Positions 14,885-60,474 of a DNA stretch of 64,000 nt are shown here, in pieces. The translations under genes and the position numbers were made by a program. This stretch comes from Acidimicrobiales bacterium (lineage in GTDB: Bacteria > Actinomycetota > Acidimicrobiia > Acidimicrobiales > JAHEJN01). The stretch spans positions 6,610-70,609 of the forward strand of contig JAHEJN010000007.1 in assembly GCA_024638845.1 (NCBI GenBank), read 5' to 3'. Under the pieces are notes generated by a model. That model searched no databases and was not told the DNA's origin. It worked only from the letters and a program-made list of their open reading frames with translations. Positions within the stretch are counted from its first letter, which is position 1; every line of letters begins with the position of its first letter.

Positions 14885-14908
14885 GGTCCAGCCTGACACC
14901 ATGGTGAC

Positions 14909-21195: not shown

Positions 21196-21244
21196 GGCAT
21201 CGGAATCCCAATCGCCACGTCTCAACCTTTCGGAGGCAGTGCCG

Positions 21245-30574: not shown

Positions 30575-31990
30575 GTGGCGATGCGATCCCGATGCATGGC
30601 GGTGCTCGTCGCCCTCTTGGTTCTCGCGGCTTCGTGCTCCTCTTCGGGTCCCGACGAGGCAACTCCCGAGAGTGGTCCGGCGGCCGATGCCGGTCAGGAG
30701 GCGGAGTTTCTGGAGGCGCCGGCGGAGTCCGATCCCGATGCCTCGGCAACCGACACCGACCCCGCGCCCGAGCTGTATCCCGACGACGCGATCATCATCG
30801 GGGTCATCTCGGACCGGACCGGCTTGATGAAGGATCTCGACGGTCCGGCGCTCGAGGCCGCGCGGGTCCAGGTCGCGCGGGTCAACGAGCGGGGTGGCGT
30901 GCTCGGGCGTCCGCTCGTGTTGGCCGAGTTCGACTCGCGGTCCCAGCTCAACGCGTCGTTCCAGGCGGCCAACGAGTTGGTGAGTGACGGCGCCGAGCTG
31001 TTCCTCGTCACCTGCGACTATCAGTTCGCCAAACCGGCGATCGAGGTGGCCACCGAGGCCGACAGGCTGGTGTTGTCGCCGTGCGGCGGTACCGCCGAAT
31101 GGGGGAACCCGGCGGTCGGGGGGCGCAACGTCTTCTCCTTCGCGATGCCATCGGCCGCCGAGGGTGTGCTCATGGCCGACTACGTGGTGGAGCGCTACGG
31201 AACCACGGTCACGATGATCATCGACTCGACCGACCCCGACGCGCAGGCACAGTGTGCGGCCTTCGAGGAGACCTTCCGGGCTGCCGGCGGGGGCTTCCGA
31301 GGTCGGCTGGAGGTCGACGTCGAATCGGCCCCCGACCTCGAGGAGAACGTCGCCTCACTCGTCCGGACGTCGTTCGAGCTTCCCACGGCAGTGGTGTTGT
31401 GCGCCGGCACGACCGTCGGCCAGGACGTGGTGTTGTTCCTGCGTCGTTCCGGCCTCGAGGCACCCATCGTTGCCGGTTCGACCATGGACGGCGACGATTG
31501 GATCGTGAACGTCGAGCGCACCGGCGAGATGGTTGTGTTGTCGTATGCCTCGACGTTCGGGGACGATCCCGATCCGGCGGTCGACCAGCTCTTCGAGGAG
31601 ATCGAGGTCTTCACGGGCGAGCCACCCGATCAGGGGCGGCCGGTCACCGGCGCCGATGCGATCGAGGCGTTCGCGCTGGCCGCCGAGCGGGCCGGCTCGC
31701 TCGACCTCGAGTCGCTCATCGCCGAGCTCGAGTCCTTCGACGGCCAGAAGCTGGTTGCCGGCACGGTCACCTTCACGAGCACGGCCCATCTGAGCTCTCG
31801 GGCCATGAGGCTCCTTCGCATCGAGGATCGGTTGCCTCGCTTCGTCGAGATGATCGAGATCGGCGCCGACGAGGTCGTTCCCGAACCCGAGCCGACGCCC
31901 GAAACCGAGGCCACGCCCGAAACCGAGGCAACGCCCGAAACCGAGGCAACGCCCGAAACCGACGCAACGCCCACAGCCGAGGGTCAGTAG
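30575..31990 (+). CDS. ABC transporter substrate-binding lipoprotein (type I PBP, Leu/Ile/Val-binding-like) with a C-terminal PETEAT repeat tail
   Basis: Lipobox LAASCSS, an acidic linker, then a PBP1 body (IIIGVISDRTG..., NERGGVLGRPL). Confidence 0.7.
   Translation: MAMRSRCMAVLVALLVLAASCSSSGPDEATPESGPAADAGQEAEFLEAPAESDPDASATDTDPAPELYPDDAIIIGVISDRTGLMKDLDGPALEAARVQVARVNERGGVLGRPLVLAEFDSRSQLNASFQAANELVSDGAELFLVTCDYQFAKPAIEVATEADRLVLSPCGGTAEWGNPAVGGRNVFSFAMPSAAEGVLMADYVVERYGTTVTMIIDSTDPDAQAQCAAFEETFRAAGGGFRGRLEVDVESAPDLEENVASLVRTSFELPTAVVLCAGTTVGQDVVLFLRRSGLEAPIVAGSTMDGDDWIVNVERTGEMVVLSYASTFGDDPDPAVDQLFEEIEVFTGEPPDQGRPVTGADAIEAFALAAERAGSLDLESLIAELESFDGQKLVAGTVTFTSTAHLSSRAMRLLRIEDRLPRFVEMIEIGADEVVPEPEPTPETEATPETEATPETEATPETDATPTAEGQ
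31895..31972 (+). repeat. 18-bp in-frame tandem repeat (4.3 copies) encoding (TPETEA)n
   Basis: acgcccgaaaccgaggc[ca] repeated; seen directly in the sequence. Confidence 0.9.
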
Positions 31991-32937
31991 CCCAGGTCGG
32001 GGTAGACCGGCCCGAGCAGCTCGTTGCCGGCGAGGTAACGAGCCACGTTGGCTCGGACTCGGCGGGCGAGGAGTCGAATTCCCATCTCCGGGGTGTTCCC
32101 GACGTGAGGGGTGAGGAGGCAGTTGCCGATCGTCCACAGCGGATGGCCGTCGGGGAGTGGTTCGGGATCGGTGACGTCGAGGCACGCCCCGCCGATCGAC
32201 CCCGCCTCGAGTGCTTCGACCAGCTCGTGGGTCACGACGTGCGCGCCCCTTGCCACATTGACCAGCCAGGCGTGGTCGCTCATCGTGGCGAGCTCGGAGC
32301 GGCCGATGATGCCGGTGGTCGCAGGCGTGAGGGCCAGTGCGAGCACGACACCGTCGGCGGTCCCGAGGGCGTCGCGCAGGCCATCGGTGGTGACGACGCG
32401 AGTGGCGCCATCGAGAGGTATGTCGCGATTGCGCACCACGCTGATGTCGCACTCGAACGGGGCCAGCAGAGGCAGGAGGTGCTCGGTGATGCCACCGCCA
32501 CCCAGGATCGTCAGACGTGCGCCGCGGAGCTCGGTTCCGATGGGGCGCCCCCAGGACGTGGCCCGACCGAAGGTGACCAGCCCGCGAAAACCGGCCAACA
32601 ACATGGCGAGGGCCATCTCGGCGACGGGCTCCGCGTAGATGCCCTTGCCGCACGTCCAGGTGCGCCCGTCGCCGACGAGATCGAGGTAGGGCTCGATTCC
32701 GGCGTAGGGCAGCTGCACCCAGTCGATCTGGGGGTTCTCGGCCAGTATCGGTGCCAGCTTCTCGGGGGTCTGGGGATCGGCCCAGATCAGGCCGGTCGCC
32801 GAGCTCGGCTCGGTCACGGTTGCGCCGGCCGACTCGGCCGCGGCGACGAGATCGTCCCGACGCCACGAGCTGGGTTCGACCGCGATGTTCGTGGGGGTCA
32901 TGGCGCCCAGGTTCGCGCGGCGAGGAAGCAGGGGCAC
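31984..32937 (-). CDS. D-isomer-specific 2-hydroxyacid dehydrogenase family protein
   Basis: LTILGGGGITEHL NAD loop, NVARGAHV and LDVTDPEPLPDGHPLW. Its stop overlaps the convergent SBP gene by 7 nt. The start may be the internal MTPTNIAV. Confidence 0.8.
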   Translation of the reverse strand: MPLLPRRANLGAMTPTNIAVEPSSWRRDDLVAAAESAGATVTEPSSATGLIWADPQTPEKLAPILAENPQIDWVQLPYAGIEPYLDLVGDGRTWTCGKGIYAEPVAEMALAMLLAGFRGLVTFGRATSWGRPIGTELRGARLTILGGGGITEHLLPLLAPFECDISVVRNRDIPLDGATRVVTTDGLRDALGTADGVVLALALTPATTGIIGRSELATMSDHAWLVNVARGAHVVTHELVEALEAGSIGGACLDVTDPEPLPDGHPLWTIGNCLLTPHVGNTPEMGIRLLARRVRANVARYLAGNELLGPVYPDLGY

Positions 32938-33017: not shown

Positions 33018-34169
33018 ATGTCAGGAGAACGGTACGATCCGATCGCCAATCCCTATGCCCCAGGTGCCGGCACGCCGCCGCCGGCACTGGTCGGGCGCGA
33101 CGCGATCATCGACGAAGCCGAGATCAGCCTCCGGCGCCTCGCATCGGCCCGTTCGAGCCAGCACCTGCTCATCACCGGTCTCCGTGGGGTGGGCAAGACG
33201 GTCCTGCTCGGAAAGCTCGCCGCGCTGGGTGAGCATCTGGGGTTTCGGGTGGTGCGGGTCGAGGCAGTCGGCGGCGACGACACCCTCCGCAGTTTTCTGC
33301 GCCAGGCGCGGCGCGTGGTGGAGGATCTCGATCGCAGCGGCAAGGCCACCCGGGCCCTGCGCTCGATCGAGTCGGTCACGCTCACGATCGCCGGCACCGG
33401 TTTCGGCGTCGACCGTCTCGACGCCACCCCCGATCGGGAGGCGTTGGCCGATGTCGTGATCGACATGGCCGCTGCGGCCGCAGAGGACGACGGGGGAGTG
33501 ATGATCGCCATCGACGAGGCGCAGATGCTCGATCCACACGATCTCCGGCGCATCCTGGCCGGCGTTCATCGATGCGGCCAGGATGGCCTTCCGCTCTACT
33601 GCCTCCTCGCCGGTCTGCCCAACCTGGTGGGCGACGTGGCCAAGGCGGCGACCTACGCCGAACGCATGTTCACGGTGGCCGAACTGGGTCCACTCTCGGC
33701 TCTCGACGTGGGTACGGCGGTGAACGGTCCGGCCGAGGAGATCGGTGTGGCGTGGTCGCCCGAGGCGATCGAGGCCATCGTCGACCGATCCGACGGGTTT
33801 CCGTTCTTCGTGCAGACCTGGGCCTATCACGTGTGGAATGCGGCGCGCGACGAGCCGGTCTCCTCCGATGACGTCGAGCGGGCGGCGATCGCCACCGATC
33901 ATGCGCTCGACTCCTCGTTCTTCGCGGCCAGGATCGCCCGGATACCGGCGTCGGAGGTGAGCTACGTACAGGCGATGGCGTCGCTCGGCCCCGGGCCCCA
34001 TCGATCCGGCGAGGTCGCCGCCGCGGCGGGGCGAACGACCTCGCAGGTCGCAGCCTTCCGCGATCGGCTCATCGCCGAAGGGGTGATCTACGCGCCCCGA
34101 TACGGCTGGGTCGAGTTCGCGATCCCGCACTTCGACGAGTACGTCCGCCGCCGGTTGCCGTCGCGCTGA
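33018..34169 (+). CDS. Orphan P-loop ATPase (ORC/Cdc6 / archaeal-ATPase-like) with a C-terminal winged-helix-like region
   Basis: Walker A ITGLRGVGKTVLL and Walker B MIAIDEAQML. The promoter region at 32960-33017 is AT-richer. Confidence 0.65.
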   Translation: MSGERYDPIANPYAPGAGTPPPALVGRDAIIDEAEISLRRLASARSSQHLLITGLRGVGKTVLLGKLAALGEHLGFRVVRVEAVGGDDTLRSFLRQARRVVEDLDRSGKATRALRSIESVTLTIAGTGFGVDRLDATPDREALADVVIDMAAAAAEDDGGVMIAIDEAQMLDPHDLRRILAGVHRCGQDGLPLYCLLAGLPNLVGDVAKAATYAERMFTVAELGPLSALDVGTAVNGPAEEIGVAWSPEAIEAIVDRSDGFPFFVQTWAYHVWNAARDEPVSSDDVERAAIATDHALDSSFFAARIARIPASEVSYVQAMASLGPGPHRSGEVAAAAGRTTSQVAAFRDRLIAEGVIYAPRYGWVEFAIPHFDEYVRRRLPSR

Positions 34170-34246: not shown

Positions 34247-34837
34247 ATGATTGCCGAACAAGCCGACTTCGAGAGCGAGGTACGAGAGCTGGTGGCGCGC
34301 GTGCTGGCAGGAGTACTCGACGACCCGGCTCCGGCTGCGGCCCCGTCGACGCCGACCGTGCCGGGTTCTGCTGCGAGCGAGCGCATCGCCATCGGGGCCG
34401 ATCACGGCGGGTTCTCCCTGAAACAGATGCTGGCGGCCGAGCTGGTCGAGGCGGGGTGGCAGGTCGAGGACTGCGGCACCGACAGCACGCAGGCATGCGA
34501 CTATCCCGACATCGCCCACCGAGTCGCCCGCCAGGTGGCCAAGGGCGACTGCACCTGGGGGATCATGATCGACGGGGCGGGCATCGGCTCGGCGATGGTG
34601 GCGAACAAGGTGCCGGGGGTGCGGGCCGCCGCGTGCTACGACCTCTCGACCGCCCGCAACAGCAGGGAGCACAACCGGGCGAACGTGCTCACCCTCGGTG
34701 CGGGTCTCACCGGTGCGGCGTTGGCCTGGCAGATCGTGCAAGAGTGGCTCGCCACGCCGTGGGGCGGCGACCGCCACCTCCGGCGGGTGGCCCTCATCAA
34801 CGAGATCGAAGAGATGTACGCCAGGAGCGAGGCATGA
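34247..34837 (+). CDS. rpiB: Ribose-5-phosphate isomerase B with an N-terminal encapsulation-peptide-like extension
   Basis: The core starts at [13 protein letters not shown]. It has [23 protein letters not shown] and [13 protein letters not shown]. About 45 extra N-terminal residues comprise the amphipathic [17 protein letters not shown] and a Pro/Ala linker. Confidence 0.85.
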
Positions 34838-35682
34838 CCGACGAACCCCTGGACCGTGAGCTGCTCATCGAGCTCATCACCAAGGAAGTGCTCAGCACGC
34901 TCAGCCGTCAGGTCGACCGCTGCGATTCGCCCGAGGGCTTGCGCCAGGTCGTCGTGAACGGCGCCGACCGAGTGGCGTTCCACGGCGATGCGTCCCAGGT
35001 GCCGATCGACCTTGCGATGTACATCGATCACACGGCGCTGAAGCCGGCAACCACGGGCGGCGAGGTCGACGTGCTCTGCCAGGAGGCCGAGCAGTACCAC
35101 TTCGCCACTGTGTGCGTGAATCCGTCGTGGGTGAAGCGCGCCGCCGACAACCTGCGGGGCAGCGACGTCAAGGTCTGCTCGGTCATCGGGTTCCCGTTCG
35201 GGGCCACGACCGGCGAGATCAAGGCCATGGAGGCCCGCCGCGCGATTCGTGACGGCGCCCGCGAAGTCGACATGGTCATCAACATCGGCGCGCTGAAATC
35301 CGGTGATCAGCAGACGGTCCTCACCGAGATGGAGAAGGTGGTCGACTCGGCGCACGAGGCCGGCGCGATCGTCAAGGTGATCATCGAGACGTCGCTGTTG
35401 ACCGACGAGGAGAAGGTGGTCGCCTCGGCGCTGGCCAAGAAGGCGAAGGCCGACTTCGTGAAGACCTCCACCGGGTTCAGCGACGGGGGCGCCACCGTGT
35501 ACGACGTTGCCCTCATGCGCGAGACTGTCGGTCCCGACATGGGCGTGAAGGCGTCGGGTGGCGTGCGAACCGCCGAGGACGTCGAGGACATGATTGCGGC
35601 TGGGGCGACCCGAATCGGGGCCTCGGCCGGAGTACAGATCGTGAGTCGAAACGAGGGAGACAGTAGTGGCGACAAGTATTGA
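34834..35682 (+). CDS. deoC: Deoxyribose-phosphate aldolase (DERA) with an N-terminal encapsulation-peptide-like extension
   Basis: ATG at 34834 overlaps the rpiB stop (ATGA). The core has [20 protein letters not shown] and the Schiff-base lysine in DFVKTSTGF. The N-terminus carries [16 protein letters not shown]. Confidence 0.88.
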
Positions 35683-36289
35683 GATCCGGTCCTTCGCCTT
35701 CCTCGACAGCCTGCAACCGCAGTACGCCGCGTTTCTCGGCACGGTGGCGCAGGGGTTCCTGCCGCTCGCCGGCGACGCCTCGCTGTACGTCGAAGTGGCG
35801 CCGGGCATCGAGATCAATCGCCTGACCGACGTCGCCTTGAAGGCCACGGCGGTCAAGCCCGGCATGCAGATCATCGAGCGCTACTACGGTCTGCTCGAGA
35901 TCCACTCACCCGATCAGGCCGAGACCAGGGCCGCCGGTGCTGCCATTCTCGATGCGGTCGGCCTCGGCGAGTCCGATCGCCTCAAGCCGAAGATCCTGTC
36001 GAGCCAGATCATCCGCCGCATCGACGATCATCACGCACAACTCATCAATCGCATGCGCCACGGCCAGATGATCGTGCCCGGCGAGACCCTGTACGTCCTC
36101 GAGTGCGAACCGGCCGCCTACGCCGCACTGGCCACCAACGAGGCCGAGAAGGCCGCCGACATCAACGTGCTCGAAGTTCGCGCCGCCGGCGCCATGGGCC
36201 GGGTGTATCTCGGCGGCGAGGAGCGCGACATCGACGTCGGCTGGCGGGCCGCAGTGGCCGCGCTGGAAGGACTAGACGGCCGCGAGTAG
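35666..36289 (+). CDS. BMC-T shell protein (tandem BMC domains, probably permuted EutL/PduB-like topology)
   Basis: GTG at 35666 after GAGGGAGA; it overlaps the deoC end by 17 nt. It has two roughly 100-aa halves, the second with [30 protein letters not shown]...GRVYLGGE. Confidence 0.65.
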
Positions 36290-36346
36290 GGCCGATTGCA
36301 GGAAGAAGACCGCAAGCAAACGAAGAGAAGATGAAGGGAGCCAGAA

Positions 36347-36649
36347 ATGGCTGAAGCGCTCGGCATGATCGAATGCAGGAGTTTCGCAGCGATGGTTGAG
36401 GCATCCGATGCGATGGTGAAGGCGGCCAAGGTCGACCTCGTCTCGTACGAGAAGACCGGAGGCGGCTACGTCACTGCGGTGATCCGTGGCGATGTTGCCG
36501 CGGTCAAGGCCGCGGTCGATGCAGGTGTCCGGGGAGCGGAGAAGGTCGGCGAGGTCATCTCGACCCACGTGATCGCCCGTCCGCACGTCAACATCGATGT
36601 CGTGCTTCCCCTGGGTCGGGCCGACGAGGCTGCCGCCGAGTCGAGCTGA
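36347..36649 (+). CDS. BMC-H shell protein (PduA/EutM/CcmK type, Pfam00936-like)
   Basis: MAEALGMIECRSFAAMVEASDAMVKAAKVDLVSYEKTGGGYVTAVIRGDVAAVKAAVDAG is a near-consensus BMC domain. A GAAGGGAG RBS precedes it. Confidence 0.92.
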   Translation: MAEALGMIECRSFAAMVEASDAMVKAAKVDLVSYEKTGGGYVTAVIRGDVAAVKAAVDAGVRGAEKVGEVISTHVIARPHVNIDVVLPLGRADEAAAESS

Positions 36650-36700
36650 TCCCGTGGGAATCGCAGAGAGCCGTGCACCTCGCCGGGAGGTGAGACGACC

Positions 36701-36988
36701 ATGCTGCTCGGCCGCGTGACCGGGACGGTCGTCGCCACCAAGAAGGAACCGCTCATCGAGGGTCTCCCCTTCCTGGTGGTGCGCCAGCTCGGCGTCGACA
36801 ACACCGAGACCGGCGGCTATGTCGTGGCGGTCAACGCGGTCGGTGCGGGCGTCGGCGAGGTGGTCATGTACGCGAGTGGCAGCTCGGCCCGTCAGACCGC
36901 GATGACCCAGAACCGTCCGTGTGATGCCGTCATCATGGCCATCGTCGACACGTGGGAAGTCGACGGCGAGACGATGTACGAGAAGTGA
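36701..36988 (+). CDS. BMC-P pentameric vertex protein (EutN/CcmL/PduN type), copy 1
   Basis: [15 protein letters not shown]...LVVRQL...[23 protein letters not shown]...DAVIMAIVD. Confidence 0.88.
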
Positions 36989-36995
36989 GCAGCCG

Positions 36996-38453
36996 ATGCT
37001 GAGCAACGACGAGGTCGAGTCGATCATCGCTCGGGTGAAGGGTCGCGTTGCTGCCGCCGAGGGCGCGGACCGGACCGGCCTCGGACTACGGGCGGCCGAC
37101 GATCTCGGTGCGGGCGAGGCCCTGCTGGGTGACGGGATCCACCCCAGCATCGACACGGCGGTCGGGGCCGCCCGAGCGGCGTTCGCCGCCTACCGCGGAA
37201 TGGGGCTCGAGTCGCGTCGGGCGATCGTCGAAGCCATGAGGGCGGCCATGCTGCGTGAAGGCGAGCGGCTGGCGTACATGGCCCATGCCGAGACCGGCCT
37301 CGGCCGAGCCGAGGACAAGGTGAAGAAGAACCTGATGGTCACCACCAAGACCCCGGGGCCCGAGGACCTCGAACCGCAGGCGGTCACCGGCGACGAGGGC
37401 ATGATGGTCACCGAGTACGCGCCCTACGGCGTCATCGGGTCGATCACCCCCACGACCAATCCGACCTCGACGATCATCAACAACAGCATCGCCATGGTCG
37501 CCGCCGGCAACGCGGTCACCTTCAACGTGCACCCTGGGGCCAAGCTGGTCTCGGTCGAGAACATCAAGCTTCTGAACCATGCGATCGCCGGTGCCGGCGG
37601 CCCGCCCGATCTCATCACGGCGGTGCCGAACCCCACGCTCGAGTCGGCCAGGGAGCTGATGGCCCACCCCGATGTGCGCGTGCTGCTCGTCACGGGCGGA
37701 CCTGCGGTGGTGGGCGAGGCGTTGCGCACACCGAAGAAGGCCATCACCGCCGGTCCGGGCAATCCACCGGCCGTGGTCGATCACACCGCCGACATCGAGC
37801 AGGCGGCGCGCGACATCGTCCGCGGCGCGTCGTTCGACAACAACATCGTCTGCGTCGACGAGAAGACCACCATCGTCGTCGAAACCGTGGCCGACGCGTT
37901 GGTGCGGGCGATGGTCGGTGCCGGGGCGTACCGCCTCAAGGAGCACGAGCTCCGTCGCCTCGAGCGGGTGATCTTCACGCAGATGGGCGCGCCCAACAAG
38001 CCAGGGGCCATCAATCCGGCGTGGATCGGCAAGAACGCCACCGACCTCCTGGCCGAGATCGGCGTCGCCGTCGACGGCGACGTGCGGCTGTTGGTCGCCG
38101 AGGTACCCGCAGAACACAGCCTGGTGTGGACCGAGCAGATGATGCCGGTGATGCCGGTGGTGCGGGTCAAAGACGTCGAGTCCGCCATCGATCTGGCCGT
38201 GCGCTCCGAGCACGGCTTCCGCCACACGGCGTCGATCCACTCCACCAATGTCGACACCATCACGACGATGGGCCGGGCCATGAACTGCTCGATCCTGGTG
38301 GCCAACGGCCCCAACTTCGCCGGTCTCGGTGAGGGGGGCGAGGGTTTCACGTCGTTCTCCATCGCCAGCCCGACGGGCGAGGGCCTCACTCGACCGCGGA
38401 CCTTCTCGCGCATCCGGCGCGTCGCAGTTGTCGGAGCGTTGCGCATTGTCTGA
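36996..38453 (+). CDS. CoA-acylating aldehyde dehydrogenase (EutE/PduP-like) with an N-terminal encapsulation-peptide-like helix
   Basis: ATG at 36996 (MLSNDEVESIIARVKGRV). YGVIGSITPTTNP, catalytic Cys in FDNNIVCVDEKT. Confidence 0.88.
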   Translation: MLSNDEVESIIARVKGRVAAAEGADRTGLGLRAADDLGAGEALLGDGIHPSIDTAVGAARAAFAAYRGMGLESRRAIVEAMRAAMLREGERLAYMAHAETGLGRAEDKVKKNLMVTTKTPGPEDLEPQAVTGDEGMMVTEYAPYGVIGSITPTTNPTSTIINNSIAMVAAGNAVTFNVHPGAKLVSVENIKLLNHAIAGAGGPPDLITAVPNPTLESARELMAHPDVRVLLVTGGPAVVGEALRTPKKAITAGPGNPPAVVDHTADIEQAARDIVRGASFDNNIVCVDEKTTIVVETVADALVRAMVGAGAYRLKEHELRRLERVIFTQMGAPNKPGAINPAWIGKNATDLLAEIGVAVDGDVRLLVAEVPAEHSLVWTEQMMPVMPVVRVKDVESAIDLAVRSEHGFRHTASIHSTNVDTITTMGRAMNCSILVANGPNFAGLGEGGEGFTSFSIASPTGEGLTRPRTFSRIRRVAVVGALRIV

Positions 38454-39060
38454 CGCCGGCCGCCGTCTCGATCCCGCCATCGGGCTCTTGGAGTTCTCGT
38501 CCATTGCGGCCGGAATCGTCGCCGGCGATGCCATGGCCAAGGCGGCACCCGTCTCGTCGCTCCATGCGGGCACCGTCCACCCTGGCCGATACCTGGTCCT
38601 GGTCGGCGGCGACACCGCTGCGGTCGAGATCGCGCTCGAGCGCGGCGGCACCGACACCGTGGTCGACCACCTGTTGCTCCCGAATGTGCACCCGACGGTC
38701 ATCACGGCCATGACGACGTCGGTGGACAGCGCGCTGCTCGACCACGACGCGCTCGGCATCGTCGAGACGTCCACGGCGGCCACCGCGATCGTGGCTGCCG
38801 ATGCAGGGGTCAAGGCCGCCGATGTGTCATTGCCGGTGGTCCGAGTGGCCGACGACCTGGGGGGCAAGGCGTACTGCCTCTTCTCCGGGGCGGTGGCCGA
38901 CGTCGAAGCCGCCGTCGAGCGCGCGGTCGCCGTCACCGAACCCACCGCGAAGTTGGTCGGAACCGCGGTCATCCCTCAGCTGCACACCGAGATGCGCGAC
39001 AACCTCGCGGCCGAGCTGCGGTTCAATCATCATCTGCAACATCGCTCGGAGTCGTCCTGA
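38446..39060 (+). CDS. BMC-T shell protein (tandem canonical BMC domains, PduT-like)
   Basis: TTG at 38446 is the only plausible start before AIGLLEFSSIAAGIVAGDAMAKAA. The second domain is ALGIVETSTAATAIVAADAGVKAADV. It overlaps the aldehyde dehydrogenase end by 8 nt. Confidence 0.8.
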   Translation: MSDAGRRLDPAIGLLEFSSIAAGIVAGDAMAKAAPVSSLHAGTVHPGRYLVLVGGDTAAVEIALERGGTDTVVDHLLLPNVHPTVITAMTTSVDSALLDHDALGIVETSTAATAIVAADAGVKAADVSLPVVRVADDLGGKAYCLFSGAVADVEAAVERAVAVTEPTAKLVGTAVIPQLHTEMRDNLAAELRFNHHLQHRSESS

Positions 39061-39341
39061 TGTTGCTGGGGCGAGTCATCGGCACGGTCGTCGCGACGGT
39101 CAAGGCCGAAGGCCTCGAAGGAGTGAAGTTCCTGGTCGTCCAGCCGCTCGACAAGCACCGGCGAGACCACGGCGCCGCCATCGTGGCCGCCGACGCGGTG
39201 GCCATGGCAGGACCGGGCGAGCTCGTGTACTTCGTTGCATCTCGCGAGGCGGCCGAGGCCTTGCCCGAGCGGTTCGTGCCCGTCGACCATGCCATCGTGG
39301 GGCTGGTCGATCAGGTGACCCTCAGCGAGGACGACCGTTGA
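39060..39341 (+). CDS. BMC-P vertex protein, copy 2
   Basis: MLLGRVIGTVVATVK...FLVVQPLD...; TGATG overlap with the preceding gene. Confidence 0.85.
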   Translation: MLLGRVIGTVVATVKAEGLEGVKFLVVQPLDKHRRDHGAAIVAADAVAMAGPGELVYFVASREAAEALPERFVPVDHAIVGLVDQVTLSEDDR

Positions 39342-39598
39342 AGATCGCACGTGTCGCCGGAACGGTGGTCTCGCCGGTCAGCCACCCCTTCTTCGAAGGG
39401 AAGCGGTTGCTGTTGTGCGACCTGGTCGACACCGACGGCTCGACGCAGGGATACGTGATCGCGGTCGACGTGGTGGACGCTGGTGTGGGCGACGAGGTGC
39501 TCATCTGCGACGAGGGCAGCTCGGCTCGGCAGATCTTCGCGCTGTCGACGGGGCCGATCCGCGCCGTGATCGTCGGCATCATCGACGAGATCAGCTGA
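39338..39598 (+). CDS. BMC-P vertex protein, copy 3
   Basis: TTG at 39338 overlaps the previous stop (TTGA). (M)KIARVAGTVVSPVSHPFFEGKRLLLCDLVD...VIAVDVVDAGVGDEVLICDEGSSAR...VIVGIIDE. Confidence 0.8.
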   Translation: MKIARVAGTVVSPVSHPFFEGKRLLLCDLVDTDGSTQGYVIAVDVVDAGVGDEVLICDEGSSARQIFALSTGPIRAVIVGIIDEIS

Positions 39599-39641: not shown

Positions 39642-40028
39642 TCAGCTGCGTGCCTCACCGAGGGCCGCCGCGATGGCTTCGAGCGCCTCGTTGTCGTCGC
39701 TGCCGAGCGACACGGCCACCTCGGCGAAGACCGACGCAGCCTCCGACAGTCGGTTCCGTCGTTCGACGACCGAGTACGCGATGGGCGGGCTGTCGGCCAC
39801 GAAGGTGCCGCGTCGCCCTTCACCGGTGAGGATGCCTGCGTACTCGAGCTCGCGGTAGGCCCGGGCGATGGTTCCGTTCGAGAGATCGAGCTGCGCCGCA
39901 AGCTGGCGGATGGTGGGCAGGCGCTGTCCGGGTCGGAGGCGGCCGGCGGCAACCTGCAACGCGATCTGCGCACGGAGCTGCTCGAAGGGAGGAATCCTCG
40001 AGTTGCTGTCGAGTCGGATGGTGACCAT
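39642..40028 (-). CDS. GntR-family transcriptional regulator (short, YtrA-like length)
   Basis: ATG at 40028 (MVTIRLD). The wHTH is LPTIRQLAAQLDLSNGTIARAYRELEYAGIL. Convergent with the last BMC gene. Confidence 0.8.
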   Translation of the reverse strand: MVTIRLDSNSRIPPFEQLRAQIALQVAAGRLRPGQRLPTIRQLAAQLDLSNGTIARAYRELEYAGILTGEGRRGTFVADSPPIAYSVVERRNRLSEAASVFAEVAVSLGSDDNEALEAIAAALGEARS

Positions 40029-40037
40029 GGTCTGTTT

Positions 40038-40055
40038 GTAGCATTGTTCTGCTAC
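40038..40055. promoter_or_regulatory. Inverted repeat GTAGCA-N6-TGCTAC, candidate GntR operator
   Basis: Perfect 6-bp arms 10 nt upstream of the GntR start codon. GntR-family sites typically contain GT...AC palindromes. Confidence 0.4.
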
Positions 40056-40102
40056 GTACGGCAAGTCAGATTCCGTTCACAGGAATGGAAGATCGCGGCT
40101 AG

Positions 40103-40585
<483 letters not shown>

Positions 40586-44945: not shown

Positions 44946-47513
44946 TCAGCCGAGAACGGTGGGAACGCGGTCGCGAACACGAGCGCGGAGGCCGACGTTC
45001 ACCCGAAGCCGTTCGAGGTGCTGGGCGATGGTCTTGGCTCCCTGGTCGAGCGGATGCTCGAGGCAGAACGACTCGATCTCCGCGGCGAGAGGTTCGATCG
45101 AGAGCGACCGAATCCCGCCGAGCAGGTACACCATGCTGGTCGACGGGAACGCCGACACGATGAACGCCCAGTTGTCGACGACGTGGGTCCACGCCCGCGG
45201 GCCGTGGTGGCGGTTGCCCATCGCCAAGGCGAGCACGAAGGGTGCGTCCTGGGTGCGGATGGTGCCGTCGACGGTCATGGCCAACAGTCGCTCGAAGTCG
45301 GCGAGACCGGGGACTGCGGCGAGGGCGTAGGAGTAGCGACGTTCGTCCTGAGGGGTCTCGGCGTCGCGGAAGCGGCGTACCAGATCGTCGAACCGGCCGG
45401 TGTCGGCGACCGATGCGACCACACCGACTGCGGCGGCTCGCAGACTGGCGTCGGCCGACTCGTCGTCGAGCAGCGCGGCGGCGCGTTCGATGGTCGGCCC
45501 GTCGACCCCGATGGTGCCGAGGGTGCCGAAGGCCGCCGCACGGAGCTCGCCGGTGCGGTCGTCCTCCTCGGCCGCCGGGTCGGGGCCCAGCCGATCGAGT
45601 AGAGGACCGAGCAGACGCCTGACCCACGCGGCGTAGGCCCCTCGGGCGTCGTCAGCGAGGAGATGGTCGATGGCGTGGAGCGTGCCCAGGATGCGCTGCC
45701 AGACCGAGAGGTCGTCGTCGTCGACGAAGGTCTGCACCAGGTCGAGGTAGGCGGCGGGGTCGAGGACACCTGCGACCAGGGCCGCCCAGGCGTCATCGAT
45801 GAGCCCGTAGCGTTCTATGGGCGCAACCGCGCCCGGGGGTAGGCCGGCGAGGGCCGTGGCCGCAGCCGGTGAGTAGTCGACTCGGTAGAAGCCGGAGGCA
45901 TCGGCGTTGACGAGCACGGCATCGTGGGCCCCCACTTCGACGATGGCATCGGGGGATTCGAGCAGAACCGGTACCGAGCGGCTGGCGCCGTCGTGGTACA
46001 CGCGCAGGACGATCGGCACGCCCCACTGCTCGCCCGACTCGACGCCGTCGTACCGGAAGCGTCGTTGTCGGAGATGTACTCGGGTGTCGTCGACGAGGTC
46101 GATCGACACGAGCGGGTGCCCGCCTTGGAAGATCCACGAGTCCATGATGCGTCGCACCGGTTGGTTCGAGACATGCTCGAGGTCGTCCCACAGGTCGGTG
46201 GTCTCGGTCGATCCGTAGGCGTGGCTGGCGAGGTAGTACCGGACGCCGTCGCGAAAGACCGTGGGTGTCAGGTACTGCTCGAGCATGCGCACGACCGCGG
46301 CACCCTTCTCGTAGGTGAGCAGGTCGTACATGCCCTCGGCGTCGGCCGGTGACACCACCGGGTATTCGATGGGGCGGGTCTCGGCCAGGGCGTCGACATC
46401 GAAGGCGGCCGAGCGGGAGAGCCCGAAGTCGACCCAGCGTTCCCAATCGGGTCGCCACGCGTTGGTTGCGTGCATCTCCATGAAAGTGGCGAAGGCCTCC
46501 TTCAGCCAGATGCCCTCCCACCACTTCATGGTCACCAGGTCGCCGAACCACATGTGAGCGATCTCATGGGCGATCACGTCGACCGATCGCTGCTGCTCGC
46601 GTTGGGTGGACCGCTGTGGGTCGAGGAGGAGGAGGATCTCCCGGAAGGTGACCGCGCCGAGGTTCTCCATGGCGCCGGACGCGAAGTCCGGAATGGCGAG
46701 CAGGTCGAGCTTGTCGCCCGGATAGGGGATGGCGAAGTACTCCTCGAAGTGGGCGAGGGAGAACGCGGCTGCTTCCTTGGCGAAGTCGATCAGGTGGTCC
46801 TTGCCGGGCACGTGGATGATCCGAACGGAGGTGTCGCTCACGTGCACCGGATCGCTCGCCTCGAGGGGGCCGACCATGAAGGCCACGAGGTAGGTCGAGA
46901 GCAGCATCGTCGGTGCGAACCGCACCTCGCGTCGTCCGTCCTCGAGCATCTCCGAGGAGATCTGGCGGCCACACGAGATGGCGAGCAGGTCGGGGTCGAC
47001 GACGAGGGTGACGTCGAAAACCGCCTTGAGGTCGGGCTCGTCCCAGCACGGGAAGGCCCGGCGGGCATTTGTCGACTCGAACTGCGTCGTGGCAAGGACG
47101 TGAGTGGCGCCGTCGGTGTCGGAGAACGAGCTGCGGTAGAACCCGCGAAGCTTGTCGTTGAGGACGCCGTCGAAGTGCGTGACCAGGACGTACTCGCCGG
47201 GCGCGAGGGTCGTGGCCGGTCCGAACGTGGCCCGCTCGTGGTCCTCGTCGAGGCTGATGGTGCACGCGATCGGGCCGTCGGTCGACTCGACATGGGCACG
47301 AGTCACCTCGAGCTCGGCCGCATTGCAGACGAGCTCGGCGGTGGGCACGTGAACGGTGACGGTCGCTCGGCACGTACCGCGAAACGTTGCCGCGTCGAGG
47401 TCGGGTTCGAGACGCAGGCGGTAGTGCGAGGGGGTGGCAGCACGTGGCAACCGGTACGGGTTCTCGATCACGTCGGGATGGTACCGGCGTGGCTCGGGGC
47501 CGCTAGCCTGCAC
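44946..47513 (-). CDS. pepN: Aminopeptidase N (M1 family)
   Basis: GAMENLG exopeptidase motif and HEIAHMWFGDLVTMKWW...WLKEAFA zinc site. Confidence 0.93.
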   Translation of the reverse strand: MQASGPEPRRYHPDVIENPYRLPRAATPSHYRLRLEPDLDAATFRGTCRATVTVHVPTAELVCNAAELEVTRAHVESTDGPIACTISLDEDHERATFGPATTLAPGEYVLVTHFDGVLNDKLRGFYRSSFSDTDGATHVLATTQFESTNARRAFPCWDEPDLKAVFDVTLVVDPDLLAISCGRQISSEMLEDGRREVRFAPTMLLSTYLVAFMVGPLEASDPVHVSDTSVRIIHVPGKDHLIDFAKEAAAFSLAHFEEYFAIPYPGDKLDLLAIPDFASGAMENLGAVTFREILLLLDPQRSTQREQQRSVDVIAHEIAHMWFGDLVTMKWWEGIWLKEAFATFMEMHATNAWRPDWERWVDFGLSRSAAFDVDALAETRPIEYPVVSPADAEGMYDLLTYEKGAAVVRMLEQYLTPTVFRDGVRYYLASHAYGSTETTDLWDDLEHVSNQPVRRIMDSWIFQGGHPLVSIDLVDDTRVHLRQRRFRYDGVESGEQWGVPIVLRVYHDGASRSVPVLLESPDAIVEVGAHDAVLVNADASGFYRVDYSPAAATALAGLPPGAVAPIERYGLIDDAWAALVAGVLDPAAYLDLVQTFVDDDDLSVWQRILGTLHAIDHLLADDARGAYAAWVRRLLGPLLDRLGPDPAAEEDDRTGELRAAAFGTLGTIGVDGPTIERAAALLDDESADASLRAAAVGVVASVADTGRFDDLVRRFRDAETPQDERRYSYALAAVPGLADFERLLAMTVDGTIRTQDAPFVLALAMGNRHHGPRAWTHVVDNWAFIVSAFPSTSMVYLLGGIRSLSIEPLAAEIESFCLEHPLDQGAKTIAQHLERLRVNVGLRARVRDRVPTVLG

Positions 47514-47539
47514 GCCGTCGGAACAGAGGGGGCTCCAAC

Positions 47540-48550
47540 GTGAAGCAGTACGACGTCGTCGGCATCGGCAACGCCATCGTCGATGTCATCAGCACCGAGC
47601 ACGAGGATTTCATCGAGGAGCTCGGCCTGGCGCGTGGCGCCATGACACTCATCGACACCGAACGCGCCGTCGAGCTCTATGCGGCCATGGGCCCGGGTTC
47701 GGAGACGTCGGGCGGATCGGCGGCCAACACCATGGCCGGCGTTGCGTCCTTCGGCGGCACGGCCGGATTCATCGGCAAGGTGCGCAACGACCAACTGGGT
47801 GAGGTCTTCCGCCATGACATCCGAGCACTCGGGGTCGACTTCGACGTGGATGGTGCCGACGAGGGCCCCTCGACCGCTCGGTGTCTCATCGTCGTCACCC
47901 CCGATGCGGCCCGCACCATGAGCACCTATCTCGGCATCGCCGGGCACCTGCATCCCGAGGACATCGACACCGAGCTCGCCTCGATGGCCAAGGTGTTGTA
48001 CTGCGAGGGCTACATCTGGGACGTCGACATCACCAAGGAAGCGATACGCAAGGCCATCGAGGCGACCAAGGCCGCGGGCAACAAGATCAGCTTCACGCTG
48101 TCCGATGCGTTCTGTGTGCAGCGCCATCACGACGAGTGGCTCGACCTGGTCGACGGCACCATCGACATCCTCTTCGGCAACCAGACCGAGCTGGCCGCCC
48201 TCACCGGGACCGACGACTGGGATGCCTGCGTCGCCGCCGTCCAGGGCAAGGTCGAGGTCGCCTGCCTCACCCGGAGTGCCGAGGGCTCGCTGATCGTGAC
48301 CGCCGACGAGCGCATCTTCGTGCCGGCGGCACCGGTCGAGAAGGTGGTCGACACGACCGGTGCCGGCGATCTCTATGCCGCGGGGTTTCTCTACGGCTAC
48401 ACGCACGGACTCGATCTCGCGACGTGCGGCGAGCTGGCCTCGCTGGCAGCGGCCGAGGTGATCGGTCACCTCGGGGCTCGCCCGCTGGTGAACCTGGCCG
48501 AACTGGCGGCCCCGGTGTTGGAATCGCGCTCCTCGGAGCCTCAGGTCTGA
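47540..48550 (+). CDS. PfkB-family kinase, adenosine-kinase-like
   Basis: DVVGIGNAIVDV, GGSAANT and the C-terminal DTTGAGDLYAAGFLYG. Confidence 0.75.
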   Translation: MKQYDVVGIGNAIVDVISTEHEDFIEELGLARGAMTLIDTERAVELYAAMGPGSETSGGSAANTMAGVASFGGTAGFIGKVRNDQLGEVFRHDIRALGVDFDVDGADEGPSTARCLIVVTPDAARTMSTYLGIAGHLHPEDIDTELASMAKVLYCEGYIWDVDITKEAIRKAIEATKAAGNKISFTLSDAFCVQRHHDEWLDLVDGTIDILFGNQTELAALTGTDDWDACVAAVQGKVEVACLTRSAEGSLIVTADERIFVPAAPVEKVVDTTGAGDLYAAGFLYGYTHGLDLATCGELASLAAAEVIGHLGARPLVNLAELAAPVLESRSSEPQV

Positions 48551-48591
48551 CCGACAACGGTCAGCCTGGGTCGAACGGCTCGCTTGTGTCG

Positions 48592-48618
48592 CTCCGACAA
48601 TAATGATTATTATCGGAG
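48592..48618. promoter_or_regulatory. 27-bp AT-rich palindrome, candidate TetR operator
   Basis: ctccgacaataat-g-attattatcggag has 13-bp arms with one mismatch. It ends 2 nt before the TetR GTG start. Confidence 0.45.
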
Positions 48619-48619
48619 C

Positions 48620-49261
48620 GTGAACCGCGACCCCGAGACCGTCCGCGAATCCCACTCTGTCGAGGAGAGCGACGACCTACGCACCCGGCTCATCGACGCC
48701 GCCAACGAGGTCTTCGCCGAACGCGGCTACGACGGTGCCGGAGTGCACGAGATCGCCCGCCGCGCCGGCCTCACGACCGGCGCCATCTACAGCCGCTTCC
48801 GCGGCAAGGACGATCTGCTGCTCGAGGCCATCGACAAGTCGATGCCCGAGGAGATCGAGCGGCTGCTCTCGGGTCAGGTCGACGCCGACGCGGCCAGCAT
48901 CATCACCCAGCTCGGCAGCCACCTCGTCGTGGAGCGGCACGGTTCGTCGGTGCTGCTCGAGGCGATCGTCGCCTCCCGACGCGAACCCGCGCTCGCCGAG
49001 CGGATCGGCGGCCGACTCGACGACGACAGCCGCCGGCTCGCCAAGCTCGTCGACGAGGCGAAGTCGGCGGGCCTGGTCGACGACACGTACACGACCGAGG
49101 CCATAACGACGTTCTGCAACGCTGTCTCCTTCGGCATGTTGGTGACCAACGCCCTCGATCGAGACCTACCCGACCACGAAAGTTGGGATCGGCTGATCGC
49201 CGGTCTCGTGACCGCACTCGCACCGGCCCGACCGGACCCGACGACGGGGGAACCACTATGA
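48620..49261 (+). CDS. TetR-family transcriptional regulator
   Basis: GTG at 48620. HTH: AANEVFAERGYDGAGVHEIARRAGLTTGAIYSRFRGKDDLL. Confidence 0.85.
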   Translation: MNRDPETVRESHSVEESDDLRTRLIDAANEVFAERGYDGAGVHEIARRAGLTTGAIYSRFRGKDDLLLEAIDKSMPEEIERLLSGQVDADAASIITQLGSHLVVERHGSSVLLEAIVASRREPALAERIGGRLDDDSRRLAKLVDEAKSAGLVDDTYTTEAITTFCNAVSFGMLVTNALDRDLPDHESWDRLIAGLVTALAPARPDPTTGEPL

Positions 49262-50391
49262 GCATCTCCGATGCCGACATCCGTAACGACATCAACGATC
49301 CCGACCGCATCATGCAGCTCGCCGAGTTCAACTCGAACCCCGAGGAACTGATCCACGCGGTCACCGACAGCAGCGAGGCAATCTTCACCTGGAACTACGA
49401 GAAGGGAGAGCGGGCCAAGCTCGACAAGCTGTACGAGAAGGCGAAGACGTCGCAGTGGAACGCCCAGACCGATCTCGACTGGAGCATCGACGTCGATCCC
49501 TATACCGCGCTGGGCGTCCTGGCCGAGGGCGGCGACAACGGGTACTACGAGGCGCCCGAGTCCCCGTTCCATCACTTCGGCGACAAGGAGTGGAGCGAGT
49601 TCACCTACCAGTCCTTCGCCTGGCGTATGAGCCAGTTCCTCCACGGTGAGCAGGGCGCACTGCTGTGCACCGCCAAGATCGTCGAGACCGTTCCGTGGAT
49701 CGATGCCAAGTACTACGCGGCCACCCAGGTGGTCGACGAGGCCCGCCACGTCGAGGTTTTCGCCAAGTACCTCGACGAGAAGATCGGTACCGAGTACCCC
49801 ATCAGCCCCCACCTTCGCCTGCTGCTCGACGACATCATCACCGACAACCGGTGGGACATGACCTACCTCGGCATGCAGATCATGGTCGAAGGCCTGGCGC
49901 TGGCCGCCTTCGGATTCATGCACCAGTTCGCCGACGATCCGCTCCTCGTGAAGATGTTGCGCTACGTGATGAGCGACGAGGCCCGTCATGTCGCCTTCGG
50001 CGTGCTCAGCCTCCAAGAGCTCTACCCGCAGATGACCCAGGCCGAGATCCAGGAGCGCCAGGAGTTCGCGTTCGAGGCGGGCCTGCGCATGCGCGACCGT
50101 TTCCTCCAGCAAGAAGTGTGGGATCGCATGGGGGTGAATGTCCGCGAGGCGGTGAAGTACCAGCTGGCCGCGCCGGCCGAGTTCAAGCAGTTCCAGGCGC
50201 TGCTCTTCTCCAAGATCGTGCCCAACTGCAAGAAGCTGGGCTTGCTCGACGCCGGCGACGGGTGGCTCCGCAAGCGATTCGAGGAGATCGAGGTCATCCA
50301 GTTCGAGGACTGGGCCGACACCACCGAGGAGTACAGCGATCTCGACCAGGTTGCCGCCGATCGCAACGCCGAGCCCGCACCGGCCGGCTAG
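49258..50391 (+). CDS. Ferritin-like di-iron protein (AurF-like oxygenase family)
   Basis: ATG at 49258 overlaps the TetR stop (ATGA). Two DEARHV (ExxH) motifs plus the partner glutamates (HGEQGA, VEGLALA). Confidence 0.7.
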   Translation: MSISDADIRNDINDPDRIMQLAEFNSNPEELIHAVTDSSEAIFTWNYEKGERAKLDKLYEKAKTSQWNAQTDLDWSIDVDPYTALGVLAEGGDNGYYEAPESPFHHFGDKEWSEFTYQSFAWRMSQFLHGEQGALLCTAKIVETVPWIDAKYYAATQVVDEARHVEVFAKYLDEKIGTEYPISPHLRLLLDDIITDNRWDMTYLGMQIMVEGLALAAFGFMHQFADDPLLVKMLRYVMSDEARHVAFGVLSLQELYPQMTQAEIQERQEFAFEAGLRMRDRFLQQEVWDRMGVNVREAVKYQLAAPAEFKQFQALLFSKIVPNCKKLGLLDAGDGWLRKRFEEIEVIQFEDWADTTEEYSDLDQVAADRNAEPAPAG

Positions 50392-50415
50392 TCGAACCAC
50401 TGAGGAAGGGCCGAG

Positions 50416-51021
50416 TCAGTCGGCGAGAGGGTCCTCGGCCGGCCGGTAGACCAGCGCCAGATCGCCCAGCCGCACGAGCGTCGAGGTGATCCAACCGCCC
50501 ATCGAGGCGAAGTGGTCGTCGAGCTTCTTGCCGTCGTCGAGCGTGTGCTCGTCGAGCTCGTAGCTGCCCTCGTAGGACACCTCGATGGCGTACTCGGCGT
50601 CGCCGAGATCGTGCCCGTACACGGTCTCGATGGTGGGACCCGAGCGGACGAGGGTATGCGGCCCGATGGTCGACGACTCGCGGGGCAGAACCTTGATCAC
50701 CACGCTCGGATCGGGCGACTCGGCCAATCGCTGGATGCGCATGGTGATGCCGATGTCGATGTGGGGTGGGTCGGTCGGTGCGTCGCCGAGGTACCAGTCG
50801 CGGTACGCGGTCTGGGACCACGTCGACCACAACAGCGTGACGTCGGCCCTCACGCGGGCCGGCGCGCCCTCGCCAGGGAGGGAGTACGAGGTCTCCCAGC
50901 TCAGGTCACCCAACAGGATGTCGCTCTGGAAGCGCTCTTCGAAGGCCTGACGTTCGAGCAACGCCGCCTCGATCGCGTCGCGCAGTGCGCCGATGGCATC
51001 GGTGAAGACGTGATCGAGCAT
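50416..51021 (-). CDS. Hypothetical protein (201 aa)
   Basis: ATG at 51021 (MLDHVFTDAIG). The coherent coding frame is the 3' part of a 658-aa track ORF. The rest of that ORF is antisense to the mutase gene, and I reject it. Confidence 0.5.
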   Translation of the reverse strand: MLDHVFTDAIGALRDAIEAALLERQAFEERFQSDILLGDLSWETSYSLPGEGAPARVRADVTLLWSTWSQTAYRDWYLGDAPTDPPHIDIGITMRIQRLAESPDPSVVIKVLPRESSTIGPHTLVRSGPTIETVYGHDLGDAEYAIEVSYEGSYELDEHTLDDGKKLDDHFASMGGWITSTLVRLGDLALVYRPAEDPLAD

Positions 51022-51084
51022 CGTGTCGGACCCTATCGGCGGGTTCTCCGGGCCGGCGGCCGGCGGGCGTGGTTGACTGGGCGA

Positions 51085-52740: not shown

Positions 52741-52788
52741 CGACGACGTCGATGATCCGACGACCGGGACGGAATCGAACTGGCTGCT

Positions 52789-53409: not shown

Positions 53410-53455
53410 GCGGCCAACCTACTCGGCCTCGCCGACACACTCCGCTCGCGCTCGA

Positions 53456-60472: not shown

Positions 60473-60474
60473 TC

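Follow-up and report, generated by a model that had tools for sequence, protein, structure and literature searches.

Nine closely packed genes at positions 34247-39598 of a stretch from contig JAHEJN010000007.1 (assembly GCA_024638845.1; the window, that is the whole 64-kb stretch of DNA that was analyzed) raise the question of which bacterial microcompartment (BMC) they encode and what that compartment would degrade. An initial annotation had described them as a locus of the sugar phosphate utilisation (SPU) class built around deoxyribose-phosphate aldolase (DERA). The locus is probably an SPU3-type microcompartment operon degrading deoxyribose-5-phosphate (dR5P), carried by an uncultured Acidimicrobiales actinobacterium.

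Coordinates, start and stop codons and junctions were taken straight from the sequence of the window, in which the GC content is 65-70% throughout. The nine open reading frames (ORFs) are intact, co-directional on the plus strand and show the codon-position GC pattern typical of genuine high-GC genes. The first gene (34247-34837, 196 aa) encodes an RpiB-like protein (PF02502, 171 bits) and overlaps by 4 nt (ATGA) with the gene for the signature enzyme DERA (34834-35682, 282 aa; PF01791 and TIGR00126 deoC). The latter overlaps by 17 nt with the gene for a CcmP-like BMC-Tdp protein (35666-36289, 207 aa, GTG start), which is matched by the CcmP structure 4ht5. After a 57-nt gap comes the gene for a BMC-H hexamer, the sole main shell tile (36347-36649, 100 aa; PF00936, 102 bits), then, after 51 nt, that for the first BMC-P pentamer (36701-36988, 95 aa; PF03319, 94 bits) and, after a further 7 nt, that for a CoA-acylating aldehyde dehydrogenase (AldDH; 36996-38453, 485 aa; PF00171 and NF011927). 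The AldDH gene shares 8 nt (TTGTCTGA) with the gene for a PduT-like BMC-Ts protein with two PF00936 domains (38446-39060, 204 aa, TTG start). The junction TGATG, with a 1-nt overlap, leads from there to the second BMC-P pentamer (39060-39341, 93 aa; PF03319, 85.8 bits), and a 4-nt overlap (TTGA) to the third (39338-39598, 86 aa, TTG start; PF03319, 79.3 bits), with which the operon ends. Every junction listed in the initial annotation, which had claimed nine co-directional genes with minimal or overlapping junctions, matches the sequence, and its gene-by-gene identities agree with the domain, structure and alignment matches described below.

A search for relatives, in which one genome per species was kept, gave 33 loci (designated by L numbers), with no cultured isolate among them. 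In the 17 best of these 33, DERA is 64-98% identical to the window DERA, and all 17 come from metagenome-assembled genomes (MAGs), mostly labelled Acidimicrobiales or Acidimicrobiia. The DERA on CAVOZP010000010.1 is 98% identical. The identical nine-gene order was found in at least 20 other contigs, mostly from Acidimicrobiia MAGs (L002, L007-L022 and L042-L045). Independent gene calls on the related metagenome contig L002 gave the same nine product lengths (196/282/207/100/95/485/204/93/86 aa). In five pairwise comparisons with relatives, the ratio of nonsynonymous to synonymous substitution rates (dN/dS) was 0.03-0.39 for all nine genes; all nine are under purifying selection. Because the same order recurs across contigs and the dN/dS values are 0.03-0.39, the arrangement is not due to chance.

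The shell set consists of one BMC-H, one PduT-like BMC-Ts, one CcmP-like BMC-Tdp and three distinct BMC-P proteins. The locus has the combination that marks a metabolosome, a PF00936 hexamer and PF03319 pentamers, all above the gathering scores, clustered with enzymes. Pfam gathering scores were passed by eight of the nine operon proteins, the exception being the third, BMC-Tdp, which reached 15 bits on PF00936 (cut-off 24.5). The initial annotation had proposed checking the six shell ORFs with the PF00936 and PF03319 hidden Markov models; five pass, and the one that fails can still be recognized clearly as a BMC-Tdp. CcmP (4ht5; residues 4-207, E = 7e-86, 290 bits over 204 residues), with which it aligns from end to end, is its best solved-structure match, ahead of the Haliangium (HO) shell BMC-T proteins (E = 3e-71) and CsoS1D; further matches include the RMM proteins MSM0275/MSM0271. 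The NCBIfam CcmP model is its top-scoring model (330 bits, cut-off 340), and the precomputed annotation lists PF27545 CsoS1D_N. Because of the CcmP and BMC-T structure matches and the NCBIfam CcmP score, the third gene product is a CcmP-like double-stacking BMC-Tdp, a trimer whose large pore would be gated. Its motif QIIERYYGL contains a Glu-Arg pair, which we take to be the pore gate and which is invariant in 25 copies. The earlier label "BMC-T (permuted-like)" for this gene was right in spirit. The alignment with beta-carboxysome CcmP (4ht5, 5lsr) includes the Glu-Arg pair, but BMC-Tdp scores just under the equivalog cut-off and is encoded in a DERA/AldDH operon of a non-photosynthetic actinobacterium with no carboxysome cargo genes.

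The BMC-H protein shows a KAAK edge motif, an ARPH motif and a GGG pore loop, and it is 100% identical in six other contigs. The three BMC-P proteins are mutually 40-44% identical. In BMC-Ts, the two PF00936 domains score 112.9 bits, and the PduT structures 3pac and 3n79 are matched with E = 5e-33. The PduT sequence TICPGKF aligns to TVHPGRY of BMC-Ts, so that a His replaces the Cys that is presumably the Fe-S ligand of PduT (Cys38) at the pore. This His (T[VT]HPG) is invariant in all 22 copies compared (across L007-L022 and L042-L045). If placed as in PduT, three His residues could meet on the threefold axis and form a putative metal or anion site.

The enzymes of the operon are DERA, the CoA-acylating AldDH and the RpiB-like protein only. 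DERA scores 281.6 bits on TIGR00126 deoC (cut-off 117), its residues 58-275 match the solved DERA 8qps with E = 2e-77, and it is about 70% identical to a solved canonical DERA. In the alignment to E. coli DeoC (NC_000913.3), D102, K167 and K201 are invariant, and the catalytic Asp/Lys/Lys set is intact. AldDH scores 608.6 bits (cut-off 403) on NF011927 (PRK15398, EutE/PduP type), in an alignment that runs to the model end, and its catalytic Cys motif NNIVCVDEK is conserved. Its AldDH domain starts at about residue 51, and there is no C-terminal extension. The earlier proposal that DERA would release acetaldehyde and AldDH would convert it to acetyl-CoA holds, the steps themselves being taken from the literature on these families. 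Neither the operon nor the window ORFs scanned yielded a phosphotransacylase (PTAC, PF06130), alcohol dehydrogenase or PduS. SPU3 and SPU6 loci typically lack these proteins too, so their absence is compatible with membership in either subtype. The locus had also been called complete, which is true of the shell, the signature enzyme and AldDH but not of cofactor recycling.

All three enzymes bear N-terminal extensions without counterpart in free-living homologues. In the RpiB-like protein, the extension of about 46 residues has a helix-like segment at about 5-25, followed by a Pro/Ala linker. The DERA extension, about 57 aa long and absent from free-standing DERAs, has many positions that are invariant among 25 homologues. 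In AldDH, the helix-like segment DEVESIIARVKGRV is followed by a Gly/Ala linker. In one related locus (L020, Actinomycetota MAG SMAG_U2916), the DERA gene carries, at about 4340-4400, a Cys/His-rich insertion (HCDDCHGSCAAHC) within the N-terminal extension; it is absent from the window DERA and may be a candidate metal-binding site.

The SPU class was named in 2014 (PMC4207490) and expanded in 2021 to more than 280 loci in seven subtypes (Sutter et al. 2021, PMC8217296). The SPU3 description (Supplementary Data 2 of PMC8217296) comprises AldDH, PF01791 and PF02502 only, with N-terminal encapsulation peptides on AldDH and DERA, and a shell in which a single BMC-H is combined with a BMC-P triplet, a CcmP-like Tdp and a Ts that lacks both the pore Cys and a PduS partner (PMC8217296). 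The window locus resembles it in its enzymes (AldDH, DERA and the ribose-5-phosphate isomerase-family protein, RPI, which is encoded upstream of DERA), in the N-terminal extensions on AldDH and DERA, and in its shell proteins: one BMC-H, three distinct BMC-P of which two are adjacent, a CcmP-like Tdp and a Ts without pore Cys or PduS. No defining feature of SPU3 differs from the window locus. A difference lies in the gene structure, since RPI and DERA are separate genes in the window; SPU3 loci in which the two are fused numbered 12 in the 2021 count and 20 in that of 2024. The assignment to the SPU class in the initial annotation was right, as judged from DERA, the Asp-type RPI and the BMC-P triplet, and the SPU3 description was matched on every feature tested.

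The initial annotation had also seen high novelty in the presence of such a locus in an actinobacterial backbone. However, the SPU3 hosts of the 2021 catalogue already include Actinobacteria, among them Actinobacteria bacterium RBG_16_68_12, a 68%-GC MAG whose Tdp (A0A1F2Y269) is labelled "ccmPlike" (PMC8217296); a CcmP-like Tdp is a documented trait of SPU2 and SPU3 (PMC8217296). The present locus adds Acidimicrobiia to an already catalogued and partly studied subtype and is not a new category. Since neither "Acidimicrobi" nor "Ilumatobacter" occurs in the searchable files of the 2021 catalogue, the acidimicrobial lineage may be newly sampled for SPU3.

The earlier statement that the SPU class had never been characterized experimentally is outdated. 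The DERA of an SPU6 locus (Chloroflexi bacterium GWB2_54_36) has been purified, assayed and found active on dR5P, and its complex with RPI has been shown (Dwyer, Sutter and Kerfeld 2024, PMC11585597). That operon is also small and PTAC-less, encoding RPI, DERA and AldDH beside a single BMC-H, a single BMC-Tdp and three BMC-P; it shares the DERA catalytic triad, the N-terminal DERA extension, the replacement of Cys by Asp in RPI and a GntR-family gene nearby. In contrast, SPU6 AldDH carries a C-terminal encapsulation peptide and falls in the EUT2-3/GRM1-2 branch, whereas the extension of the window AldDH is N-terminal. SPU6 has a blue-clade Tdp and no BMC-Ts and is restricted to Chloroflexi, whereas the window locus has a CcmP-like Tdp, a BMC-Ts and Acidimicrobiia hosts. 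The SPU6 regulator, a GntR with a UTRA domain, leads the operon, while the window GntR is a convergent, Rv1152-like protein of 140 aa that is not conserved. The SPU6 subtype was rejected on four of these features: AldDH without a C-terminal extension, a CcmP-like Tdp, the presence of BMC-Ts and Acidimicrobiia MAG hosts. A second comparison is offered by the SPU-type compartment of Hodarchaeales, for which shell self-assembly and encapsulation peptide-dependent cargo recruitment were shown in 2025 (bioRxiv, PMC12747264). Both share the DERA and AldDH core and dR5P from nucleic-acid breakdown as the proposed substrate, but in the Hodarchaeales operons DERA is fused to a flavoprotein domain and citrate synthase to PTAC, and a BMC-P has a disordered tail that binds DNA; the window locus lacks all three.

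If the operon is of this type, what would the RpiB-like protein do? Its isomerase fold spans residues 47-184 and is preceded by the Pro/Ala-rich linker. Aligned to E. coli RpiB, it keeps His99, Asp9 and His10, but the catalytic Cys66 is replaced by Asp (IMIDGAG vs ILICGTG), which is present in 24 of 24 cassette copies. The replacement has been reported in all SPU RPIs, and the SPU6 RPI homologue shows negligible ribose-5-phosphate isomerase activity and forms a roughly 1:1 complex with DERA (PMC11585597). The name RpiB, given in the initial annotation, holds for the family (PF02502), but with Asp in place of the catalytic Cys66 the protein is no canonical isomerase. The gene has a dN/dS of 0.14-0.22, and from this purifying selection it follows that its product does something. 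By analogy, the RpiB-like protein is most likely a DERA-binding packaging partner and not a ribose-5-phosphate isomerase; packaging or scaffolding is the guess with the best support.

A different role for this protein is the basis of the alternative that survives best, namely that the compartment handles a sugar phosphate other than, or besides, dR5P, the Asp-type RpiB-like protein being an isomerase of new specificity that acts on a substrate or product of DERA inside the shell. The gene adjoins that for DERA in every copy and is under the selection just described, and three active-site residues (His99, Asp9 and His10) are conserved. LacA-type homologues likewise carry Asp at the position of RpiB Cys66, and the 2024 study leaves room for activity on rare sugar phosphates (PMC11585597). 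However, the SPU6 homologue has negligible activity on ribose-5-phosphate and yet forms the 1:1 complex with DERA, no transketolase or other enzyme of the locus connects pentose phosphate to DERA, and the window DERA is close to the canonical enzyme and far above the deoC equivalog cut-off. We consider this alternative unlikely. Somewhat more doubtful still is its extended form, in which the Asp-type RpiB-like protein would be an active isomerase of new specificity and the His-lined pore of BMC-Ts a dedicated conduit, in a pathway unlike that from dR5P to glyceraldehyde-3-phosphate and acetyl-CoA. If this were true, the PTAC-less nine-gene cassette would run a non-textbook pathway; given its varied positions in the genomes of aerobic Acidimicrobiia, it would also be a minimal organelle module, sufficient in itself.

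For the preferred SPU3-type compartment acting on dR5P, the following pathway is proposed. Deoxynucleosides would be imported and split in the cytosol by the nearby Bmp-ABC transporter, deaminases, nucleoside phosphorylase and PGM-family mutase to give dR5P, which would enter the shell. DERA, to which the RpiB-like protein would bind as a packaging partner as in the SPU6 homologue, would cleave dR5P to acetaldehyde and glyceraldehyde-3-phosphate, and the latter would exit to glycolysis. The shell would hold the acetaldehyde until AldDH turns it into acetyl-CoA and NADH. Because PTAC, alcohol dehydrogenase and PduS are all missing from the operon, an exchange of cofactors across the shell is proposed, and CoA/acetyl-CoA and NAD+/NADH would most likely swap with the cytosol through the large gated BMC-Tdp pore. 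The Tdp pore has been proposed as the cofactor route in PTAC-less SPU types (Dwyer et al., PMC11585597).

The genes for the first steps lie outside the operon. A nucleoside uptake and catabolism cluster at 47507-63104, 8-24 kb downstream of the operon, contains genes for a PfkB kinase (47507-48550) and a phosphoglucomutase/phosphomannomutase (PGM/PMM)-family phospho-sugar mutase with PGM_PMM domains I-IV (about 51085-52740, +, start codon approximate). These are followed by genes that Pfam matches assign to a uracil phosphoribosyltransferase (UPRTase; 52789-53409, -), a pseudouridine-5'-phosphate glycosidase (53456-54355, -), an adenosine deaminase (55068-56144, -), a Bmp/PnrA-type binding protein (56283-57605, +), an ABC ATPase (57741-59327, +) and two ABC permeases (to 61785, +). 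A purine nucleoside phosphorylase (PNP) gene lies at 62262-63104 (-; NCBIfam, 308.8 bits, cut-off 218). The mutase is a candidate phosphopentomutase, which would convert deoxyribose-1-phosphate to dR5P. The cluster resembles the mycobacterial deoD-pmmB-upp-add-deoA-cdd region. It also holds a TetR and a QueF-like protein.

In one relative (L042, a 3.83-Mb contig whose DERA is 84% identical), the cassette lies inside a nucleoside-catabolism neighbourhood, between upp and a PGM-family mutase gene. It is preceded there by genes for an ABC permease, cytidine deaminase, pyrimidine-nucleoside phosphorylase, adenosine deaminase, pseudouridine-5'-phosphate glycosidase, PfkB kinase and UPRTase, and followed by two unrelated genes and then the PGM/PMM-family mutase, which is 53% identical to the window mutase. 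In another (L043), a PNP_UDP_1 phosphorylase, the orthologue of the window PNP, is encoded two genes upstream of the cassette. The window cluster genes are 53-69% identical to the copies in these two contigs. Since the cassette is embedded in a nucleoside cluster in some genomes, there is independent genomic support for the proposed substrate; this support for deoxynucleosides as the source of dR5P is circumstantial.

More than 120 protein clusters (at 90% identity) have a DERA at least 79% identical to the window DERA, with a query coverage of 94% or more in every case. In about 100 of them the whole query is covered, N-terminal extension included, and one is named Ilumatobacter sp. Because so many DERA clusters match closely, the cassette is common in environmental Acidimicrobiia. 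Some assignments of the related loci call for comment. Two loci labelled "Acidobacteriota" (L013 and L016) have flanking gene families in common with the Acidimicrobiia MAGs L019 and L021, and the 6.3-kb contig L010, labelled "Gammaproteobacteria", holds a cassette 85% identical to that of the window; mis-binning or mislabelling is more likely in these three than cross-phylum transfer. In Melioribacteraceae and Chlorobiota MAGs (L024, L025 and L026), DERA is 52-53% identical and aligns from residue 1 or 16, extension included. No shell-protein gene was found there on the 7.6-20.9 kb examined (up to 10 kb on either side of DERA), and DERA appears to sit in a satellite position. The closest named relative (L001/L034; contig_54593, MFD09779.bin.3.236), with 98% DERA identity, has frameshifts in the genes for AAA16, RpiB, DERA, BMC-P and AldDH, and one of its gene calls fuses a polyprenyl synthase with a binding protein.

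These frameshifts bear on a further alternative, that the operon was acquired horizontally, is now silent or in decay and no longer gives rise to an organelle. The flanks vary between lineages, so the cassette has moved, and no promoter-like or terminator-like site was detected around the operon. However, the nine ORFs are intact in the window, as they are in 15 or more other contigs, each gene has a dN/dS well below 1, and the overlapping start and stop codons are preserved. In L001/L034 the frameshifts are scattered over many genes, flanking ones included, which looks like sequencing or assembly error and not decay. As for expression signals, a sigma-70 consensus scan of 32.9-40.3 kb, uninformative for a 68%-GC actinobacterium, gave zero promoter-like sites, and terminator-like sites in the same region were no commoner than in shuffles, a scan likewise uninformative at 68% GC. 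We regard a silent or decaying cassette as very improbable, and pseudogenisation was rejected on the intact ORFs and low dN/dS. That the locus encodes a carboxysome-related or other non-SPU compartment, as several shell proteins scoring best on CcmP/CcmL/CcmO models might suggest (BMC-Tdp on CcmP as given above, all three BMC-P on CcmL), is scarcely credible, and a beta-carboxysome affiliation is effectively refuted by gene content. The carboxysome-model scores all lie under the equivalog cut-offs (330 vs 340; 60-90 vs 125), RuBisCO, carbonic anhydrase, CcmM and CcmN were absent from the locus and from the window ORFs scanned, and the locus holds AldDH and DERA together with a CcmP-like Tdp of the kind documented for SPU2/SPU3.

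Do the flanking genes belong to the system? An AAA_16/STAND-like NTPase gene (33018-34169, +, 383 aa, no NCBIfam match) ends 77 nt upstream of rpiB, and a 2-hydroxyacid dehydrogenase gene lies at 31984-32937 (-). Downstream, and convergent with the operon, is a gene for a GntR protein (39642-40064, -, 140 aa; PF00392), an Rv1152-like short form without a UTRA domain, from which a P-II family gene (40109-40585, +) diverges. When the flanking ORFs of 18 related loci were clustered in search of a conserved regulator or accessory gene, no flanking gene was shared across lineages. The AAA_16 ATPase, the 2-hydroxyacid dehydrogenase and GntR flank the cassette in the nearest relatives only (L001, L002 and L034); the L002 NTPase is 97% identical to the window copy. 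Because no flanking gene is common to the lineages, GntR and the upstream AAA_16 ATPase were rejected as parts of the system. Thus, the convergent GntR regulator, which the initial annotation had counted with the locus, exists, but it is not a conserved part of it. Other lineages have a LacI gene downstream (L044), HTH proteins (L016, L017 and L019) or nothing obvious beside the cassette; in L020, a co-directional upstream gene encodes a GntR-like protein of about 265 aa that is 34% identical to the window GntR over the N-terminal part.

The only clean palindrome (40178-40218; 13-nt arms GTGTCAGCCCGTG...CACGAACTGACAC, GTGTCAG...CTGACAC) lies between GntR and the P-II gene, and no copy of it was found upstream of rpiB. 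It is a likely operator of the GntR/P-II pair and not of the BMC operon. Inverted repeats were also sought upstream of rpiB and in the stretch from the operon to GntR, with no convincing result. Scans of the whole window for Rfam families (at gathering thresholds) and for tRNAs were both negative, and hence there is no riboswitch or other RNA element at the operon.

Other observations concern the surroundings of the cassette. In L043, a large BTAD-AAA_16 regulator is encoded two genes downstream. DNA-alkylation repair genes (DNA_alkylation, Ada/AlkA and methyltransferase domains) follow the cassette within a few kb in L044 (14897-20861) and L045 (14952-19498); the association is recurrent and may be a coincidence. 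In the window, two ORFs (14897-17308, +, 803 aa, and 21095-22606, +, 503 aa) have coding-like GC3 and no Pfam match at E <= 1e-5. Their neighbours are mannose-metabolism and housekeeping genes (ManB-like PGM/PMM, PMI, PGI-like SIS protein and AdoHcy hydrolase).

Several points weigh against an SPU3-type compartment for dR5P as set out above. In the catalogue, SPU3 is formally assigned by "colour" clades of shell-protein models; here the subtype was assigned by the written description and tree labels, and is to that extent provisional. No native SPU compartment has been visualized in any organism, and the window locus is read as one from its genes. The assignment of the N-terminal segments is weak. 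Their hydrophobic moments are 0.43-0.63 against protein medians of about 0.25 (DERA extension 0.63 vs 0.26), which is above the median and not extreme. The AF2 model of DERA, built on a shallow alignment of 25 close homologues, has an acceptable barrel, but its extension helices at 8-24 and 33-41 are of low confidence, with a pLDDT of only 37-59. These tests are mildly supportive, and the segments may be said to resemble encapsulation peptides. A scaffold role of the RpiB-like protein and a catalytic one are equally compatible with the purifying selection on its gene, and the route of cofactor recycling is a conjecture. Finally, the linkage to nucleoside genes is seen in some lineages only; the flanks in L044 and L045 are unrelated.

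SPU compartments are among the most widespread bacterial organelles and are thought to recycle the deoxyribose of environmental DNA. Acidimicrobiia are abundant in soil and water. What is added here to the picture of the locus is the SPU3 subtype, the Asp-type RpiB, the His-pore BMC-Ts, the exclusion of GntR as a conserved part and the link to the nucleoside cluster. Among Acidimicrobiia, actinobacteria that are uncultured or rarely cultured, the minimal SPU3 cassette of nine genes is common, and its conservation is strong. Its small size would make it a reasonable candidate for heterologous reconstitution, and the locus may help to address the recycling of CoA and NAD+ in a compartment that lacks PTAC, PduS and alcohol dehydrogenase.

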